From the IMG/VR virus record IMGVR_UViG_3300000530_000004, positions 1 to 61,971 of that record: a stretch of 61,971 nt of DNA. One strand, 5' to 3'. This stretch comes from a virus. Its lineage: Duplodnaviria > Caudoviricetes. Below, piece after piece: positions 1 to 61,971 of the stretch. The notes under the pieces were generated by a model. The model saw nothing but the letters and a program-made list of their open reading frames with translations, made no database searches and had not been told where the DNA came from. Position 1 is the first letter of the stretch, and every line of letters starts with the position of its first letter. Both the position numbers and the translations under genes were made by a program.

Positions 1-141
1 AATGGAAATCCAATTTATCAGCAAATGGAATATGGCTCACCAGCTTGGTGTGCAAACATGACTGCATTTGTACAAAACCTACAAAATACGATTACCAACC
101 TAGAAGCTAAACTAAAAGCTGCTGGCGTAGCAGGATTCTAA
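1..141 (+). CDS. 3' end of a tail fibre protein (peptidase S74-like intramolecular chaperone tail), partial
   Basis: Frame 1 reads NGNPIYQQMEYGSPAWCANMTAFVQNLQNTITNLEAKLKAAGVAGF*, resembling the coiled-coil end of tail-fibre chaperone domains. Confidence 0.6.
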   Translation, partial: NGNPIYQQMEYGSPAWCANMTAFVQNLQNTITNLEAKLKAAGVAGF

Positions 142-151
142 AGGAATAAAT

Positions 152-244
152 ATGACCTACGGAAACTTATCAGTAGACCAACTAACATCAAGCACAGGAC
201 AATCACTTAGTCCAGCCAGTTCTTCTGCGACTATGAAAGGTTAA
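152..244 (+). pseudogene. Orphaned 30-codon 5' fragment of the tail gene that restarts at 899
   Basis: RBS AAGGA precedes ATG; translates as MTYGNLSVDQLTSSTGQSLSPASSSATMKG*, matching the N-terminus of 899..1933 (MTYGTISADLISTSTGRTIGASSSATMKN). Confidence 0.75.
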
Positions 245-245
245 T

Positions 246-902
246 ATGCAAGCTCAAGTTTATCTAGTAACTAATCAGATCAACGGAAAGCATTATGTTG
301 GTCAAACCATTAACCCTCATCTTAAAAGAGGGCATGGTAGGTTATTAAAAACCGCTTACAGGTATCATGGATTTAATAATTTTAGTTATGAGCCAATTAT
401 TACTGGAATTGATAATAGAGACTGTTTAAACCTGCTAGAACGATTTTGGATTGGCGTTTATGATTGTGTTGTACCTAATGGTTATAACATTGAATTAGGC
501 GGTTCAGAGGGAGTCAAATGGACCGAAGAACGCAGAAGAAAGCATGGGTTAGCTTTAAAAGGACATAGAGGTTGGCGTAAAGGATTAAATTTGCCAAGCC
601 CTAATAAAGGAAAAAAGTATCCCGAAGAAGGAAAGCGTAAGTTATCTGAAGCATTAAAAGGCAGAGTTGGTACCAATTTAGGTAAAAAGGCTTCTGAAGA
701 AACAAAAGCAAAAATGACAGCAAGCCAAAAGGCTTATTGGGCAACTCATCCAAGCCCTAATTTGGGTAGAAAACATACTGAAGAATGGAAACAGCAAGCT
801 AGTGAAAGAATGAAAAAACAAGTTCAATCTATTGAAACAAGACAAAAGCGTAGCGAGTCAATTAAGGCTTGGCACGCTAAACGCAAGGAGCAATTAGCAT
901 GA
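246..902 (+). CDS. GIY-YIG homing endonuclease with NUMOD3-like repeats
   Basis: QVYLVTNQINGKHYVGQT, LLERFWI and NGYN motifs, followed by repeats GKKASEETKAKM and GRKHTEEWK. Confidence 0.9.
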   Translation: MQAQVYLVTNQINGKHYVGQTINPHLKRGHGRLLKTAYRYHGFNNFSYEPIITGIDNRDCLNLLERFWIGVYDCVVPNGYNIELGGSEGVKWTEERRRKHGLALKGHRGWRKGLNLPSPNKGKKYPEEGKRKLSEALKGRVGTNLGKKASEETKAKMTASQKAYWATHPSPNLGRKHTEEWKQQASERMKKQVQSIETRQKRSESIKAWHAKRKEQLA

Positions 903-1933
903 CATATGGGACTATATCTGCGGATTTAATCTCTACATCTACTGGGCGAACTATAGGAGCAAGCTCATCCGCCACAATGAAAAATCGTATTTTGAACGGC
1001 GATATGAGGATAGATCAGAGGAATAATGGGGCTAGTATTACCCCAACTACTAGCCAGTATTCGGTTGACAGATGGCTTGCAAACCTTACGGTTGCTTCAT
1101 TATATAGCGCACAACAAACAACATCCGCCCCTGCAGGCTTTACAAATTCTTTGCTTGCAACTTCTTTATCTGCGCATACAGCCACATCAGGTGATTATGA
1201 GAGTTTTCAGCAAAGAATTGAGGCTTATAATATGCAAGATGCAGGCTGGGGGACAGCTAACGCAAAAACATTTACTTTATCTTTTTGGGTACAAAGTTCT
1301 TTGACTGGAACATTCGGTGGTTCAGTATATTTTCCGGGGAGCGTGGTTGTCAGGTCTTACCCGTTTAGCTATTCTATTCCCACAGCAAACACTTGGACAT
1401 ATGTATCAATAGTTATTCCCGGAGATACCTTTTCAAATACTGCGCCTACAACTAACAACCTTTATGCAATTATCCAATGGGCTTTATGTGCCGGTTCTAA
1501 CTACGAAACATCTGTTTCTGGTTGGCAAAGTGGAAATTATTTAGCTCCTACCGGAACTGTTAATATTTTAGGCACATCAGGAGCTACATTCTACCTGACA
1601 GGCGTACAACTCGAAGTAGGAACAGTCGCAAGTAGCTTTGATTACAGAGATTATGGTCGTGAATTGATAATGTGTCAGAGGTATTATGAATATGGCAATT
1701 TTAGAATTGATGGTTATGGAGCAAGTGGAACTAGATTATCAACTACATACGGATATAAAGCAAATAAAAGAATTAATCCTACTGTAACATTTACAGGCAC
1801 TGGATTTATTAATGGTTCTGGTGTAGGAATCGATGGTGCATCAGATGTTTATGGATTTATAGGATATTTTTCTGTGACTTCAACTGGAGGGGCAGCAATG
1901 GCTACTGGTTGGAATTCTTCTGCGGAGCTATAA
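899..1933 (+). CDS. Tail fibre / receptor-binding protein (beta-rich)
   Basis: KNRILNGDMRIDQRN, TGVQLEVG and ELIMCQRYY motifs typical of phage tail-fibre domains; located in the tail region. Confidence 0.7.
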   Translation: MTYGTISADLISTSTGRTIGASSSATMKNRILNGDMRIDQRNNGASITPTTSQYSVDRWLANLTVASLYSAQQTTSAPAGFTNSLLATSLSAHTATSGDYESFQQRIEAYNMQDAGWGTANAKTFTLSFWVQSSLTGTFGGSVYFPGSVVVRSYPFSYSIPTANTWTYVSIVIPGDTFSNTAPTTNNLYAIIQWALCAGSNYETSVSGWQSGNYLAPTGTVNILGTSGATFYLTGVQLEVGTVASSFDYRDYGRELIMCQRYYEYGNFRIDGYGASGTRLSTTYGYKANKRINPTVTFTGTGFINGSGVGIDGASDVYGFIGYFSVTSTGGAAMATGWNSSAEL

Positions 1934-2143
1934 ATGATATACAAACAAATACTAGATAATTTATCAAATAAAATAGCAATTATTCAGCGTTTGTCTGATA
2001 CAGCATTTATTCCCCTTGCCAAAGCCAACACTGATTACCAACAATTTAAAAAAGACTTGTCTAACGGTGCAGAACTACAAGACAGCACAGGCGCTGTAAT
2101 GACAGCTAGTCAGATTCAAGCGTTTATAGCGACACTGCCATGA
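1934..2143 (+). CDS. Small tail-fibre-associated protein
   Basis: FIPLAKANTDYQQF motif; directly follows the fibre gene. Confidence 0.55.
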   Translation: MIYKQILDNLSNKIAIIQRLSDTAFIPLAKANTDYQQFKKDLSNGAELQDSTGAVMTASQIQAFIATLP

Positions 2144-2562
2144 TCTGGAATAAAGAAACTGACCCTAGACTACCAAGCTGGCTTAATGCAGTTCTTAACA
2201 CGCCACCTTTTCTATTACCCCAAGAGTTTGTAATTCCTGTTATCTGTATTGTTCTGGGGTTCAAGCGTAATGGTAAATGGATGCTTGGTAAGATAGGTCG
2301 TGGCCCTAATAATCCTGCGTATATTGGACAGATGTTCTGGAATGGCATATTCGAGTGCAGATTCATGTTGCCATTTTATGTGAATTTTATGATTAGATGG
2401 TCAGCAACTGCTAGTCCAAGTTACTTTCAGTTTCAACTGGGCTGGAAACGCAATGGACGCTTTGCTATTGCATTTAGATTCTTAACCGATGCCTCTGCAA
2501 GGGCTGGTGTATTAAGCCCTAACACAGACCAAGCTGGTGGGTTTAATGAGGGTACGGCATAG
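2140..2562 (+). CDS. Hypothetical protein
   Basis: 140-aa ORF coupled to both neighbours by overlapping start/stop codons. Confidence 0.55.
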   Translation: MIWNKETDPRLPSWLNAVLNTPPFLLPQEFVIPVICIVLGFKRNGKWMLGKIGRGPNNPAYIGQMFWNGIFECRFMLPFYVNFMIRWSATASPSYFQFQLGWKRNGRFAIAFRFLTDASARAGVLSPNTDQAGGFNEGTA

Positions 2563-3128
2563 TGTTTGCAATAACTGCCCTTGCTCAGTCACCCTATGCT
2601 TCGCTTGGCGGTAATACTTACCTTGTGTCCATTTCAGATTCTGTAACGTCTACTGATACATTAAGTTCTTTTGCTAATTTTGTGGGTACAACAAGCGAGT
2701 CATCATCATTTACAGATTCAGATGTAGGGCAGTTTAATTTCTTTGAGACTGTTGCAGATACTCAATTCTATTCGGATCAGTATTTTGGATACTGGAATAC
2801 TAATGCTTCAACCTTAGAATCTCAAACTTTAACAGACAGCTTATCAGCTACACAGAATTTTCCAGTCGCAGTTACAGATACTGCAACTTATTTAGATTCA
2901 TTGCTTAATACGGGTTGGGCTAAGATTAATGATAATCAAACAGTTACTTGGACTCAAGTATATAATGTTCAAAACGAAACATGGCAGCAAGTAGTTGATG
3001 TACAGTCATCTGCAAATACGGGTGGCCTATTCTTTGGCGCGGCAGCTTTTGGACAAAGCCCATACTCGGGATCATCTACTACAGGTGTCACTGGGCCTAA
3101 TTGGACAGATATAAACGATATACAGTAA
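2562..3128 (+). CDS. Virion structural protein (Ser/Thr-rich)
   Basis: MFAITALAQSPYASLGG N-terminus and WTDIND C-terminus; tail-region context. Confidence 0.55.
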   Translation: MFAITALAQSPYASLGGNTYLVSISDSVTSTDTLSSFANFVGTTSESSSFTDSDVGQFNFFETVADTQFYSDQYFGYWNTNASTLESQTLTDSLSATQNFPVAVTDTATYLDSLLNTGWAKINDNQTVTWTQVYNVQNETWQQVVDVQSSANTGGLFFGAAAFGQSPYSGSSTTGVTGPNWTDINDIQ

Positions 3129-60027: not shown

Positions 60028-61233
60028 ATGGCCTTGGTTTATTACGATAGAGTCCAAGAGACTACTACAACTACGGGTACAGGACCAGTCACACTACTAG
60101 GCCCTGTTTTAGGTTTTCAGTCTTTTGCAGTGGTAGGAAATGGTAATCAAACTTATTATGCTATTGCTGACCAAGGCGGAGCTAATTGGGAAGTAGGTAT
60201 TGGTACTTATGCTAGTACTGGTCCAGCACTTTCTCGCGATACAGTTTTATCATCCTCAAATATGGGGTCATTGGTCAATTTTACTGCCGGAACTAAATCA
60301 GTATTTTTAACTTACCCATCTGAAAAAGCAGTTATATTAGATCAACTTGGTAACTCTACACCATTAGGTACCCCTGCATCTGTAACATTAACTAATGCTA
60401 CTGGACTTCCTTTAAGTACTGGCGTGACTGGAACCTTAGCTGTTTTAAATGGTGGTACGGGAACAACAACTTCTACAGGTTCTGGCTCAGTTGTTTTAAG
60501 CAACTCCCCTAGTCTTACTACTCCTAATTTAGGTACCCCATCTGCTGCGGTTTTAACCAATGCTACAGGACTGCCACTCACTACAGGCGTAACGGGCACT
60601 TTAGGAACGCCTAACGGTGGTACAGGGCTTACATCGTTTACTAGTGGCGGCGCTGTTTATGCTACATCTACTAGTGCGTTAACGACTGGTACTTTACCTA
60701 TTGCCTCGGGGGGTACAAACTCAACAAGTACTCCTACAGCTGGTGGTGTGGCTTATGGTACAGGAACAGCTTATAGTTTTTCTGCTACAGGTACAGCTGG
60801 TCAAGTATTAGTATCCGCGGGATCTACTGCTCCTACTTGGGATAATGTTTCAACCGTCGCAGTAACTTCATTTAGTGGTGGTACAACAGGACTTACACCA
60901 AGTACACCTTCTCTAGGTGCCGTAACTTTAAGCGGAACATTAAATGTAGCTAATGGTGGTACAGGACTTACTTCTGTTACTTCAAACGAAATTCCCTACG
61001 GTAATGGTACTGGGCCTTTACAAACTTCTGCCGATCTTACATTTAACCCTGCTTTAGGAACATTGTATGCAAGTCAGGTAGGGGCTAGTAATGGGTTGTT
61101 GATGAATCAAACCACGATCAATAAGAGCTATACGATTGATACAGGATATAACGCTATCTCGGTTGGACCCATAACTATTGCAAGCGGACAGACGGTTACT
61201 GTCGGGGCAGGACAAAGATGGGTTGTACTATAA
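60028..61233 (+). CDS. Tail fibre protein with GGTG repeats
   Basis: DRVQETTTTTGTG start; repeated LTNATGLPL / GTLxVxNGGTG units. Confidence 0.75.
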   Translation: MALVYYDRVQETTTTTGTGPVTLLGPVLGFQSFAVVGNGNQTYYAIADQGGANWEVGIGTYASTGPALSRDTVLSSSNMGSLVNFTAGTKSVFLTYPSEKAVILDQLGNSTPLGTPASVTLTNATGLPLSTGVTGTLAVLNGGTGTTTSTGSGSVVLSNSPSLTTPNLGTPSAAVLTNATGLPLTTGVTGTLGTPNGGTGLTSFTSGGAVYATSTSALTTGTLPIASGGTNSTSTPTAGGVAYGTGTAYSFSATGTAGQVLVSAGSTAPTWDNVSTVAVTSFSGGTTGLTPSTPSLGAVTLSGTLNVANGGTGLTSVTSNEIPYGNGTGPLQTSADLTFNPALGTLYASQVGASNGLLMNQTTINKSYTIDTGYNAISVGPITIASGQTVTVGAGQRWVVL

Positions 61234-61243
61234 AGGATAAAAT

Positions 61244-61762
61244 ATGAGCGTGACATTTAATGCAACTGTTTCCAATGGCCTTGTAATAACCCCAGATAAT
61301 TCAGGGCAGATACAATTTCAGCTTAATGGAGTTAATGTACCAAGCCCTAGTGTTGCTCCTACTTTTAGTGCTTATCAAGGGTCTACTCAAAGTTTGTCAG
61401 CTTCAACAGCTACAAAAATAATAATAAATACAAAAGAATGGGATACTAATAATAATTTTGATGCAGTTACTAACTATAGATTTACCCCAACTGTTGCTGG
61501 ATATTATCAATTTAGCTTTGCGATAAGAAGTGATAATACTTTAAGTGCATTACACGCTAAATTATATAAAAATGGAGTAGATACTAATAAAGATGCTCAA
61601 TTTACCAATAGTTCATTATCCGCTTTTATGTCATCATCCTCTGCATTATTATATTTAAATGGAACAACAGATTATGTTGAGTTATATGCGTTTTCTGGTT
61701 CAGCTATTACATTAAATCCAAGTTATTGTTATTTACAAGCCTTTCTAGCGAGACCTGCATAA
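61244..61762 (+). CDS. C1q-like tail fibre tip protein
   Basis: FSAY...WDTNNNFD..YRFTPTVAGYYQF...LNGTTDYVELY. Confidence 0.7.
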   Translation: MSVTFNATVSNGLVITPDNSGQIQFQLNGVNVPSPSVAPTFSAYQGSTQSLSASTATKIIINTKEWDTNNNFDAVTNYRFTPTVAGYYQFSFAIRSDNTLSALHAKLYKNGVDTNKDAQFTNSSLSAFMSSSSALLYLNGTTDYVELYAFSGSAITLNPSYCYLQAFLARPA

Positions 61763-61944
61763 TGACAACCCTATATCAAAAAATAATTACTATTTACCCT
61801 ACATTAACCCCTGCTGACTTTGCTCCTCCAACAGGAACAATAGTTTTACAGAATGATTCTGATGGTAAAGGGGATTATATTAAACACTGGGGGCACCCAA
61901 CACTTGCTGAACCAACTCCTGCACAGTTGGCAGCGATACCTTAA
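61762..61944 (+). CDS. XkdW-like small tail protein
   Basis: IVLQNDSDGKGDYIKHWGHPTLAEPT. Confidence 0.6.
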   Translation: MTTLYQKIITIYPTLTPADFAPPTGTIVLQNDSDGKGDYIKHWGHPTLAEPTPAQLAAIP

Positions 61945-61971
61945 GGAGTAATAGATGAGCTTGATTTTAGA

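Follow-up and report, generated by a model that had tools for sequence, protein, structure and literature searches.

The window analysed here, IMG/VR virus record IMGVR_UViG_3300000530_000004, is a whole viral record of 61,971 bp that is called linear and has a CheckV completeness of 99%. Close to its first base lies a homing endonuclease gene (HEG) with a homologous 5' end of a tail-fibre gene on either side. We consider it quite likely that this locus is a selfish nuclease gene that settled in the tail-fibre gene and brought a foreign replacement front end with it, the original front having been left behind as a stub of 30 codons. Direct reading of the sequence confirmed the three open reading frames (ORFs) described in an initial annotation of this DNA, namely the stub, the nuclease gene and a complete tail-fibre gene. 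The features of the locus are given below, with reference to a nuclease-free viral contig (L256), a pair of loci with and without the nuclease (L081/L082), a metagenome run (X4) and a related protein (P0002).

1-141, + strand: 3' end of the upstream gene (ending AKLKAAGVAGF, then stop); resident DNA, common to nuclease-free L256
141-145, + strand: AAGGA, the ribosome-binding motif that first belonged to the tail-fibre gene and is now the stub's, 6 nucleotides (nt) before the ATG; the same region precedes the intact gene of L256
152-244, + strand: 30-codon stub (MTYGNLSVDQLTSSTGQSLSPASSSATMKG, then stop), the displaced native 5' module; homology to intact alleles stops at 237
238-245, + strand: left junction and filler AGGTTAAT, in which the stub terminates with TAA (242-244), 1 nt ahead of the nuclease ATG
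246-902, + strand: free-standing GIY-YIG/NUMOD3 HEG, 218 residues, recognised by Pfam, PHROG 314, profile comparison, Foldseek and its positional relatives
885-890, + strand: AAGGAG Shine-Dalgarno sequence of the tail-fibre gene, inside the C-terminal R-K-E codons of the nuclease and 8 nt before the ATG at 899
899-979, + strand: replacement N-terminal module (copy 2), which would move with the nuclease, judged by its alignment with the stub and by analogy to L081/L082
980-1009, + strand: variant module-boundary motif KNRILNGDMR, putative nuclease target region and immunity determinant, with 12 mismatches to the HEG-free consensus
899-1933, + strand: complete tail-fibre gene, 344 residues, recognised by PHROG 4492, family search and phage-record annotation
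1569-1933, + strand: 3' third of that gene, common to alleles with a stub-type 5' end (P0002-like), from the comparison with P0002 and a contig of run X4

The interrupted gene and its empty site

A literal 20-base stretch of the stub end, used to search the viral collection, returned one contig, L256. In reverse complement (2280-2520), this contig matches window positions 1-237 at 94.2% over 241 nt, taking in the end of the upstream gene, the spacer and the start MSTYGTLAIDQLTSSTGQSLSPASSSATMK. It then runs from ATMK directly into the NRLINGGM of an uninterrupted tail-fibre gene of 319 residues, and the nuclease gene is absent. Because L256 continues the stub into an intact gene, the 30-codon ORF is the stub of the resident gene and no gene of its own. 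The last 21 codons of the stub specify the same amino acids as in L256 and differ from it by one synonymous base; the stub itself appears young. Identity between the window and L256 breaks between 237 and 238, inside a Lys AAA codon, so that the insertion point that had been proposed, after ATG AAA, was right within 1 nt. The flanks of L256 are syntenic with the window further out as well (window 2025-2561 at 89.8% and 61730-61971 at 93.4%).

Relatives in which ATMK is fused directly to the gene body, which the initial annotation had suggested looking for, were found not only in L256, where the fusion reads NRLING, but also in metagenome runs X1 and X2, where it reads K-N-R-I-I-N-G. One contig of run X1 spans the passage from stub to HEG (208-492), and another links position 237 to 1004 via 22 letters that encode K-N-R-I-I-N-G-A. 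Run X2, which contains window positions 1-66 with 0 differences, leaves 269-1005 uncovered and has two contigs that link 237 to 1010 through canonical-type motifs. A contig of run X4, which corresponds to protein P0002, contains 218-237 and 1607-1689 with 0 differences and has 508 other letters between them. Contigs of all three runs leave the window sequence at 237. These contigs show that such alleles exist; membership of isogenic phages is not implied. The empty site is shown directly for the window alone, because exact 23-29-mers from three other stub loci (L010, L020 and L146) retrieved only the HEG-bearing contigs themselves. None of the collected loci was a near-isogenic HEG-free partner of another stub locus.

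To the right of the nuclease, the tail-fibre gene is complete, and its ATG overlaps the nuclease stop codon (ATGA at 899-902). Both homologous 5' ends point the same way, at a distance of 747 nt from each other. ORF 899-1933 matches PHROG 4492 ('tail fiber protein') at 8.3e-48 and belongs to a very large tail-fibre family, with 7955 members at E<=0.001 among 8000 scored; phage GenBank records gave only four short matches of 61-79 bits, each within a tail-fibre gene, and in these records the gene is annotated as 'tail fiber protein'. N-terminal modules in this family are highly diverse, with lengths of 19 to more than 55 residues, and all of them join the body at [FM][KR]NRIINGxMxIDQ; the [FM][KR]NRIING motif marks the point where the variable N-terminal module gives way to the gene body. 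The stub matches the family's N-terminal modules at 5.6e-10. How far the foreign DNA reaches beyond this border is suggested by P0002, which is about 95% identical to the window protein over the last ~125 residues and about 45-70% identical before them. The earlier proposal of an imported N-terminus holds in so far as a foreign replacement came with the nuclease; the imported piece was probably larger than the N-terminus, since P0002-like alleles share only about the last third of the gene, and its right limit possibly lies near 1570-1607, so that the central part of the fibre would be included.

The same arrangement could in principle be undone at the RNA level, with the stub as a first exon and 238-982 either excised, as a group I intron with the nuclease ORF inside it, or bypassed. 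The stub does end exactly where the gene body could resume, and GIY-YIG nucleases are often intron-encoded. However, no Rfam family matched at E<=1 on either strand of positions 1-3000, and between the stub break and the gene body the nuclease ORF leaves only 8 + 80 nt uncovered, of which the 80 nt are a family-typical N-terminus with its own Shine-Dalgarno sequence and ATG. Moreover, in the survey described below, 30 of 68 loci lack the upstream 'exon' and their HEG-gene arrangement is unchanged. We regard RNA-level joining as extremely improbable. Since the functional gene starts at 899 with its own Shine-Dalgarno sequence and ATG, no splicing is needed, and the gene would work without it, as had been predicted.

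The nuclease and the recurrence of stubs

The product of ORF 246-902 has a Pfam NUMOD3 match at residues 122-157 (38.8 bits; cut-off, 20.4) and matches PHROG 314 ('homing endonuclease') at 6.8e-35, with PHROG 7168 and 5123 ('homing endonuclease') also matched. A profile built from 11 nuclease homologues found the catalytic domain of I-TevI (1ln0/1mk0; E 0.0012/0.0079). In the AlphaFold2 model, the N-domain has a predicted local distance difference test (pLDDT) value of ~80, compared with 65 for the whole model, and the three best Foldseek matches of this modelled domain were again the I-TevI catalytic domain (1mk0/1ln0; E 1.4e-3 to 4.2e-3; probability 1.00; template modelling score on the target, 0.55-0.57). 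Work on I-TevI has identified two Tyr, an Arg, a Glu and an Asn as the catalytic residues of GIY-YIG enzymes; Y6, Y17, E65 and N78/N81 of the nuclease are invariant or nearly so across the 11/11 aligned sequences. The C-terminal R-K-E codons are invariant in 11/11 as well, and the Shine-Dalgarno arrangement is the same in 7/7 loci inspected. As these codons spell the Shine-Dalgarno sequence of the fibre gene, the nuclease and the gene start are built as one unit.

Nucleases of this kind come in a long form of ~217 residues, to which the window's belongs, and a short form of ~171 residues (alignment A1, columns 96-142) without a 42-residue repeat or segment that overlaps the NUMOD3 region; both forms are found with and without stubs. 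A 176-residue ORF in front of a tail-fibre gene at L035:1045-1575 resembles the short nucleases in its last 44 residues (82% identity) and is different in its N-terminal part; the catalytic part may have been exchanged in front of a common C-terminal end. Prokaryote genomes yielded distant nuclease relatives only, with partial matches of at most 41% identity.

Close HEG relatives in the viral collection (44-69% identity) stand directly before a tail-fibre gene of the same family in 11/11 cases, and they usually follow a small conserved gene whose window counterpart is at 61762-61944. We then surveyed viral and metagenome contigs by scans with the 11-nuclease alignment. The survey covers the best 80 of 423 and the best 80 of 439 relatives. 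After removal of identical flanks, and with at least 130 nt upstream and at least 150 nt downstream required, it comprised 101 non-redundant HEG loci. A tail-fibre gene directly follows the HEG in 68/101; the other 33 mostly belong to a distant nuclease subgroup at other sites. According to what precedes the nuclease, and with stub lists that were curated by eye and cleared of 6 false hits, the 68 loci are composed as follows.

Stub of at least 19 residues, 12 distinct junction families: 17/68 loci
Stub of 8-14 residues: 5/68 loci
Stub of 6 residues: 4/68 loci
Nuclease directly after the small gene, no stub: 30/68 loci
Other or unclear upstream sequence: 12/68 loci

Stubs are thus present at 26/68 HEG-linked tail-fibre loci in total. 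The same test applied to nuclease-free tail-fibre genes gave 0/61 with a stub or second copy, after vetting of 4 raw hits, and the tie between the double 5' end and the nuclease, on which the initial annotation had staked its proposal, held among these genes.

The distant subgroup (~40-47% identity) occurs at L129-L143, L151-L155 and L213-L250, with the HEG at ~1501-2100 in each. It stands directly after genes that end in GPITIASGQ.V.V..G.RWV[VIL] (like the window gene at 60028-61233) or in VFSS or ILGN, and these loci have no KNRIING gene downstream. This suggests that the nuclease clade switched targets among tail or fibre genes.

We next compared where the stubs end. In all 12 junction families, stub homology ends, as judged by eye, ~-7 to +16 nt from the first base of the K/R codon in [FM][KR]NRIING; the window's ends at +1. 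The ends therefore span ~25 nt for modules of 19 to more than 55 residues. Every stub ends at or before the sequence C-A-A-T-G within the motif. I-TevI cleaves at a CNNNG motif, which C-A-A-T-G would fit; we advance this likeness tentatively, as part of the wider reading of the nuclease clade set out in the last section. The other side of the junction is equally narrow. Stub loci elsewhere have fillers of 2-11 nt comparable to the window's, with a stop codon at the same place, and the window filler probably represents the final bases of the donor's upstream flank. With such stub ends and short fillers, the junction is tightly placed: in the recipient it is restricted to the motif, and in the donor to the final bases ahead of the nuclease gene.

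Could the stub have been kept because it does something, either as a leader that delivers ribosomes or as a small peptide? Its AAGGA and start codon are kept, and its frame is open to 1 nt before the nuclease ATG; in each of the 12 junction families, the stop codon falls between -5 and +4 nt relative to the nuclease start; and in stub-free loci the stop codon of the upstream gene likewise abuts or overlaps the nuclease start. On the other hand, the near-identity to L256 over the last 21 codons means that the window stub may simply be young, decayed versions exist (8-14 residues with an internal deletion, as in L110, or 6 residues, as in L127), and 30/68 loci do without a stub. Retention for a function, which would be compatible with the homing explanation, thus seems rather unlikely to us. 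What the stub does at present is a separate matter: because the old ribosome-binding site is kept and the stop codon falls 1 nt before the nuclease ATG, it is probably translated as a leader and supplies the nuclease gene with ribosomes.

A more general objection is that the locus reflects ordinary module shuffling at the KNRIING border, with an illegitimate crossover that left the stub and a nuclease that was a passenger and cut nothing. Modularity is pronounced in this family, where dozens of unrelated N-modules meet the body at the same motif; the window gene is a mosaic relative to P0002 and L256, and cleavage by the window nuclease is something that we infer. Against shuffling, however, stand the restriction of stubs to HEG-linked loci (26/68, compared with 0/61), the left-junction partner, which is the upstream flank of the HEG and has no homology to the motif, and the confinement of HEG-linked motif variants to ~30 nt (see below). 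We hold shuffling without cleavage to be improbable.

Individual stub loci add further detail. L102:1380-1500 and L135:1380-1500 have the same stub (94% DNA identity) in front of nucleases of 216 and 171 residues, and their junctions differ (SSVM followed by L and stop, compared with SSVMR followed by IA and stop). Two explanations suggest themselves: two hits on a single recipient lineage, or exchange of the cassette downstream of a stub that was already there. At L105:1420-1500, the stub, which begins MTYGTVQANAIQGS, is of another N-module class than the following gene (MSTVNVNRIV...), so that an incoming module can be unlike the one that it displaces. In the decayed stub at L110:1450-1500, the internal deletion follows the start MTTSIGGTT, and the F-K-N codons survive from the motif just before the nuclease ATG.

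Divergent N-termini, cassette behaviour and the boundary motif

The two N-termini of the window share 17/30 residues over the first 29 codons of copy 2, with one 1-codon gap, and 50/90 nucleotides. Among the identical residues other than Met and Trp, 14/15 use different codons, and only the Lys AAA is kept. This contrast had led to the description of copy 2 as fully recoded. Codon usage of the window predicts 5.0 coincidences in 15, as compared with the 1 seen (P(<=1)=0.016), which is nominally more than saturation would give; the value is post hoc, for a locus that was chosen for this very feature. In 11 other stub/gene pairs, 52/162 codons are identical (32%), compared with 59.1 expected (P=0.13), at DNA identities of 45-62%. 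We therefore rejected 'over-recoding' as a design: the excess seen in the window is absent from the 11 other pairs. The observation that 14 of 15 codons differ stands; adaptive recoding is not supported, as codon sharing in the other pairs is at chance level. The impression of 'recoding' arises from the long separation of the alleles from which the copies derive, and the codon contrast is best read, from these comparisons, as ordinary saturated synonymous divergence of old donor and recipient alleles. Similar direct repeats flanking the nuclease would be deleted by recombination, which would be a second and sufficient ordinary reason for divergent copies.

The same figures bear on a history in which the 5' end of the gene was duplicated in tandem in situ, the copies diverged and the nuclease was later inserted between them. 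The direct orientation and the 747-nt distance of the homologous ends would suit such a duplication. However, the stub is 94% identical to L256 and 56% identical to copy 2, with synonymous sites saturated, so that the copies diverged long before the stub and L256 lineages split, and no HEG-free genome has two copies (0/61). Tandem duplication is therefore very improbable.

Presence/absence polymorphism of the nuclease at one site is seen not only between the window and L256 and within run X1, where both forms occur, but also in two near-isogenic pairs. L081, which has the HEG, and L082, which does not, have 2 differences in 1594 nt upstream; downstream, they have 21 differences in 1428 nt, every one of them within 68 nt of the fibre-gene start. 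L111 (with HEG) and L088 (without) are identical from motif position +27 on, and the canonical motif of L088 is replaced in L111 by a variant with Cys for Met. Flanking sequence was thus co-converted with the nuclease, in a block that lies within 68 nt of the HEG in L081/L082 and ends at motif +27 in L111/L088. In these two pairs, the HEG and the 5' module of the gene move as one block. L002, L003 and L006 have one N-module and motif before different gene bodies, and the nucleases of L006 and L002 are 71% and 98.6% identical to that of L003.

We then compared the boundary motif of 69-70 distinct HEG-linked and 68-69 HEG-free segments. The canonical form [KR]NRIINGxM is present in 13/70 HEG-linked and 56/69 HEG-free segments (Fisher, 5e-14); the two sets were drawn from separate searches, their members are not independent in phylogeny, and L019, which was counted as 'free', is in fact a carrier truncated by the end of its contig. 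Mismatches to the HEG-free consensus at +0 to +29 average 10.8 in HEG-linked and 5.6 in HEG-free segments (Mann-Whitney U, 2.5e-13). At +30 to +59 the means are 4.3 and 4.75 (p 0.98), and column by column the differences are concentrated at +2 to +29, with none beyond +30. The canonical motif would accordingly be the target, and the variant carried by the cassette would escape cutting. The idea that the replacement N-terminus carries resistance has to be amended: the comparative signal of immunity lies in the motif at 980-1009, not in the duplicated N-terminal codons.

Besides the non-independence of the two motif sets, a number of observations weigh against the homing explanation or parts of it. 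As to the nuclease, its match to Pfam GIY-YIG (PF01541) is marginal (23.1 bits; cut-off, 22.6), and the segment of the I-TevI catalytic Arg27 falls into an alignment gap where no invariant Arg is seen. As to the motif, L256 has a non-canonical one (KNRLING), 13 of the 70 HEG-linked segments are canonical, and nuclease-free L082 (1595-1700) has the carrier-type motif KNKIINGAC and is else identical to L081. These cases make the link between HEG and motif statistical, not absolute, and L081/L082 is silent on immunity because its motif is identical in both. L082 could represent loss of the nuclease or a resistant allele without a nuclease. As to the alleles, the metagenome contigs are short (for example, 120 nt at a depth of 2.2), with sides of 20-30 nt and depths of 2-14. 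P0002-like alleles suggest, rather than fix, the right-hand limit of the import, because the gene body of L256 is unlike the window's except at 1607-1683. Neither the direct donor of the window nor an isogenic recipient was found, a degenerate DNA pattern of the stub's first codons had no match among viral contigs, and no RNA sequencing runs containing the stretch are listed. Finally, simple end joining does not account for a donor side that lies at most 11 nt from the nuclease ATG at every junction.

A proposed homing mechanism and its known relatives

The mechanism that we propose for the window starts from a resident gene that began MTYG...ATMK and ran straight into the conserved KNRIING motif. 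A nuclease from a co-infecting carrier would break this gene within the motif. The right end would then be repaired by copying the donor through homology in or beyond the motif, which would import the nuclease gene, the donor's N-terminal module, the variant motif and probably the middle of the gene. The left end, an N-module without a partner in the donor, would be joined, with no homology involved, to a point a few bases ahead of the nuclease ATG and give a stub, as at 26/68 loci; alternatively, it would be resected to the upstream gene and give a clean replacement, as at 30/68. The resident 5' module at 152-237 would have been left as a stub because its end was joined non-homologously. Taken as a single whole, this mechanism is in our judgement likely to be correct, with less confidence attached to single steps: we infer the position of cleavage, the immunity and the repair route from sequence comparisons.

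Free-standing GIY-YIG and HNH genes are familiar from phage T4, in which SegF, SegG, SegB and MobE lie between genes and home without introns. In relatives that lack the nuclease, these enzymes cut a neighbouring gene; flanking markers undergo co-conversion, and protection is due to polymorphism of the target. We know of no Seg or Mob system that departs from clean gene conversion by retaining a duplicate of the target gene end, or that targets tail-fibre genes. I-TevI, encoded in the intron of T4 td, is the best match in sequence and fold for the N-terminal ~85 residues of the window nuclease, and both enzymes combine a catalytic domain with an extended DNA-binding part that includes NUMOD3. 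In contrast to I-TevI, the window nuclease has no intron and an unrelated target, its identity to I-TevI is ~20-24%, and the Arg27 segment cannot be aligned.

A closer parallel is offered by the mobile-ORF 'gene hybrids' of fungal mitochondria, which the accessible text of PMC3630166 describes for atp6 of Allomyces macrogynus and for atp6, atp9, cox2 and nad3 of Glomus. There, an endonuclease ORF (GIY-YIG in atp9) arrives with a foreign gene end, and the native end is kept as a diverged duplicate; according to the same text, the duplicates are 64-81% identical in DNA with the protein conserved, and are read as horizontal transfer (PMC3630166). As far as this text describes them, the gene hybrids share with the window all three elements, that is, the endonuclease ORF, the foreign gene end and the retained native duplicate. 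The order differs, being core, foreign C-terminus, ORF and native C-terminus in the fungal genes and native stub, ORF, foreign N-terminus and body in the window. Furthermore, the fungal ORFs in the described cases are mitochondrial and often in frame with the host gene, whereas the window nuclease is a separate, translationally coupled phage ORF. The window resembles the gene-hybrid type in its working and is not a member by descent.

Among phages, the accessible text on MobA and gene 60 (bioRxiv 10.1101/2022.08.31.505936) describes a T4-type free-standing HEG inserted at one conserved place in an essential gene. Its cassette carries a diverged homologous replacement (HomR) of the region of its own nick site together with an immunity feature, and multiple independent insertions are described, as are nearly identical relatives with an empty site (bioRxiv 10.1101/2022.08.31.505936). 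On that account, MobA differs from the window nuclease in the following respects. It is an HNH enzyme whose host gene is split into two polypeptides, whereas the window has a GIY-YIG enzyme and a whole gene; it deletes 55-75 nt of resident sequence, whereas the window keeps the resident piece as a stub; and its immunity requires a 50-nt translational bypass, whereas the window asks nothing unusual of the ribosome. In open-access text, with the MobA preprint taken without its supplements, we found neither stubs of gene 5' ends at phage HEGs nor a HEG family that targets tail-fibre genes. The accessible parts of PMC8778798 and PMC10448857 contain no description of such stubs or of such a family.

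Together, these results allow a wider reading that we offer with reserve, giving it slightly less than an even chance. A clade of GIY-YIG HEGs may be specialised on the tail-fibre module border of uncultured, mostly freshwater phages and may be an engine of module exchange. Each homing event would import a foreign N-module, and sometimes the central fibre, so that a selfish nuclease would reshuffle host-recognition hardware. Left ends without a match would be joined non-homologously, and the stubs would be footprints that map cleavage to ~25 nt and have been reused as nuclease leaders. If this is true, a HEG family uses the tail-fibre gene as its home and moves pieces of it between phages, which would link the spread of a selfish element to the evolution of the attachment apparatus. 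The stubs would be a rare read-out, from sequence alone, of both the cut site and its repair, homologous on one side and non-homologous on the other, and at least 12 junction families of uncultured phages would offer it. The stubs also bear on annotation: gene callers will list small ORFs in front of nuclease genes or place the start of the fibre gene wrongly. The mirror-image parallel with the mitochondrial 'gene hybrids' suggests that this outcome is a general one when intron-less elements home into coding sequence.

Two minor observations concern the record as a whole and its first 2 kb. One window ORF starts at 61957 and another ends at 141, and the matching points in L256 are ~950 nt apart on one gene; correspondingly, the last 242 bases of the window match L256 ~950 nt upstream of the point that matches window base 1. 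Because the split ORF ends correspond to one L256 gene, the record seems to be a circular permutation that lacks ~1 kb, despite its 99% completeness. On the + strand, no terminator-like sites were found in positions 1-2200. The minus strand of 119-2097 has five terminator-like hairpins, compared with 1.5 +/- 1.1 in shuffled sequences, all of them antisense to coding sequence.

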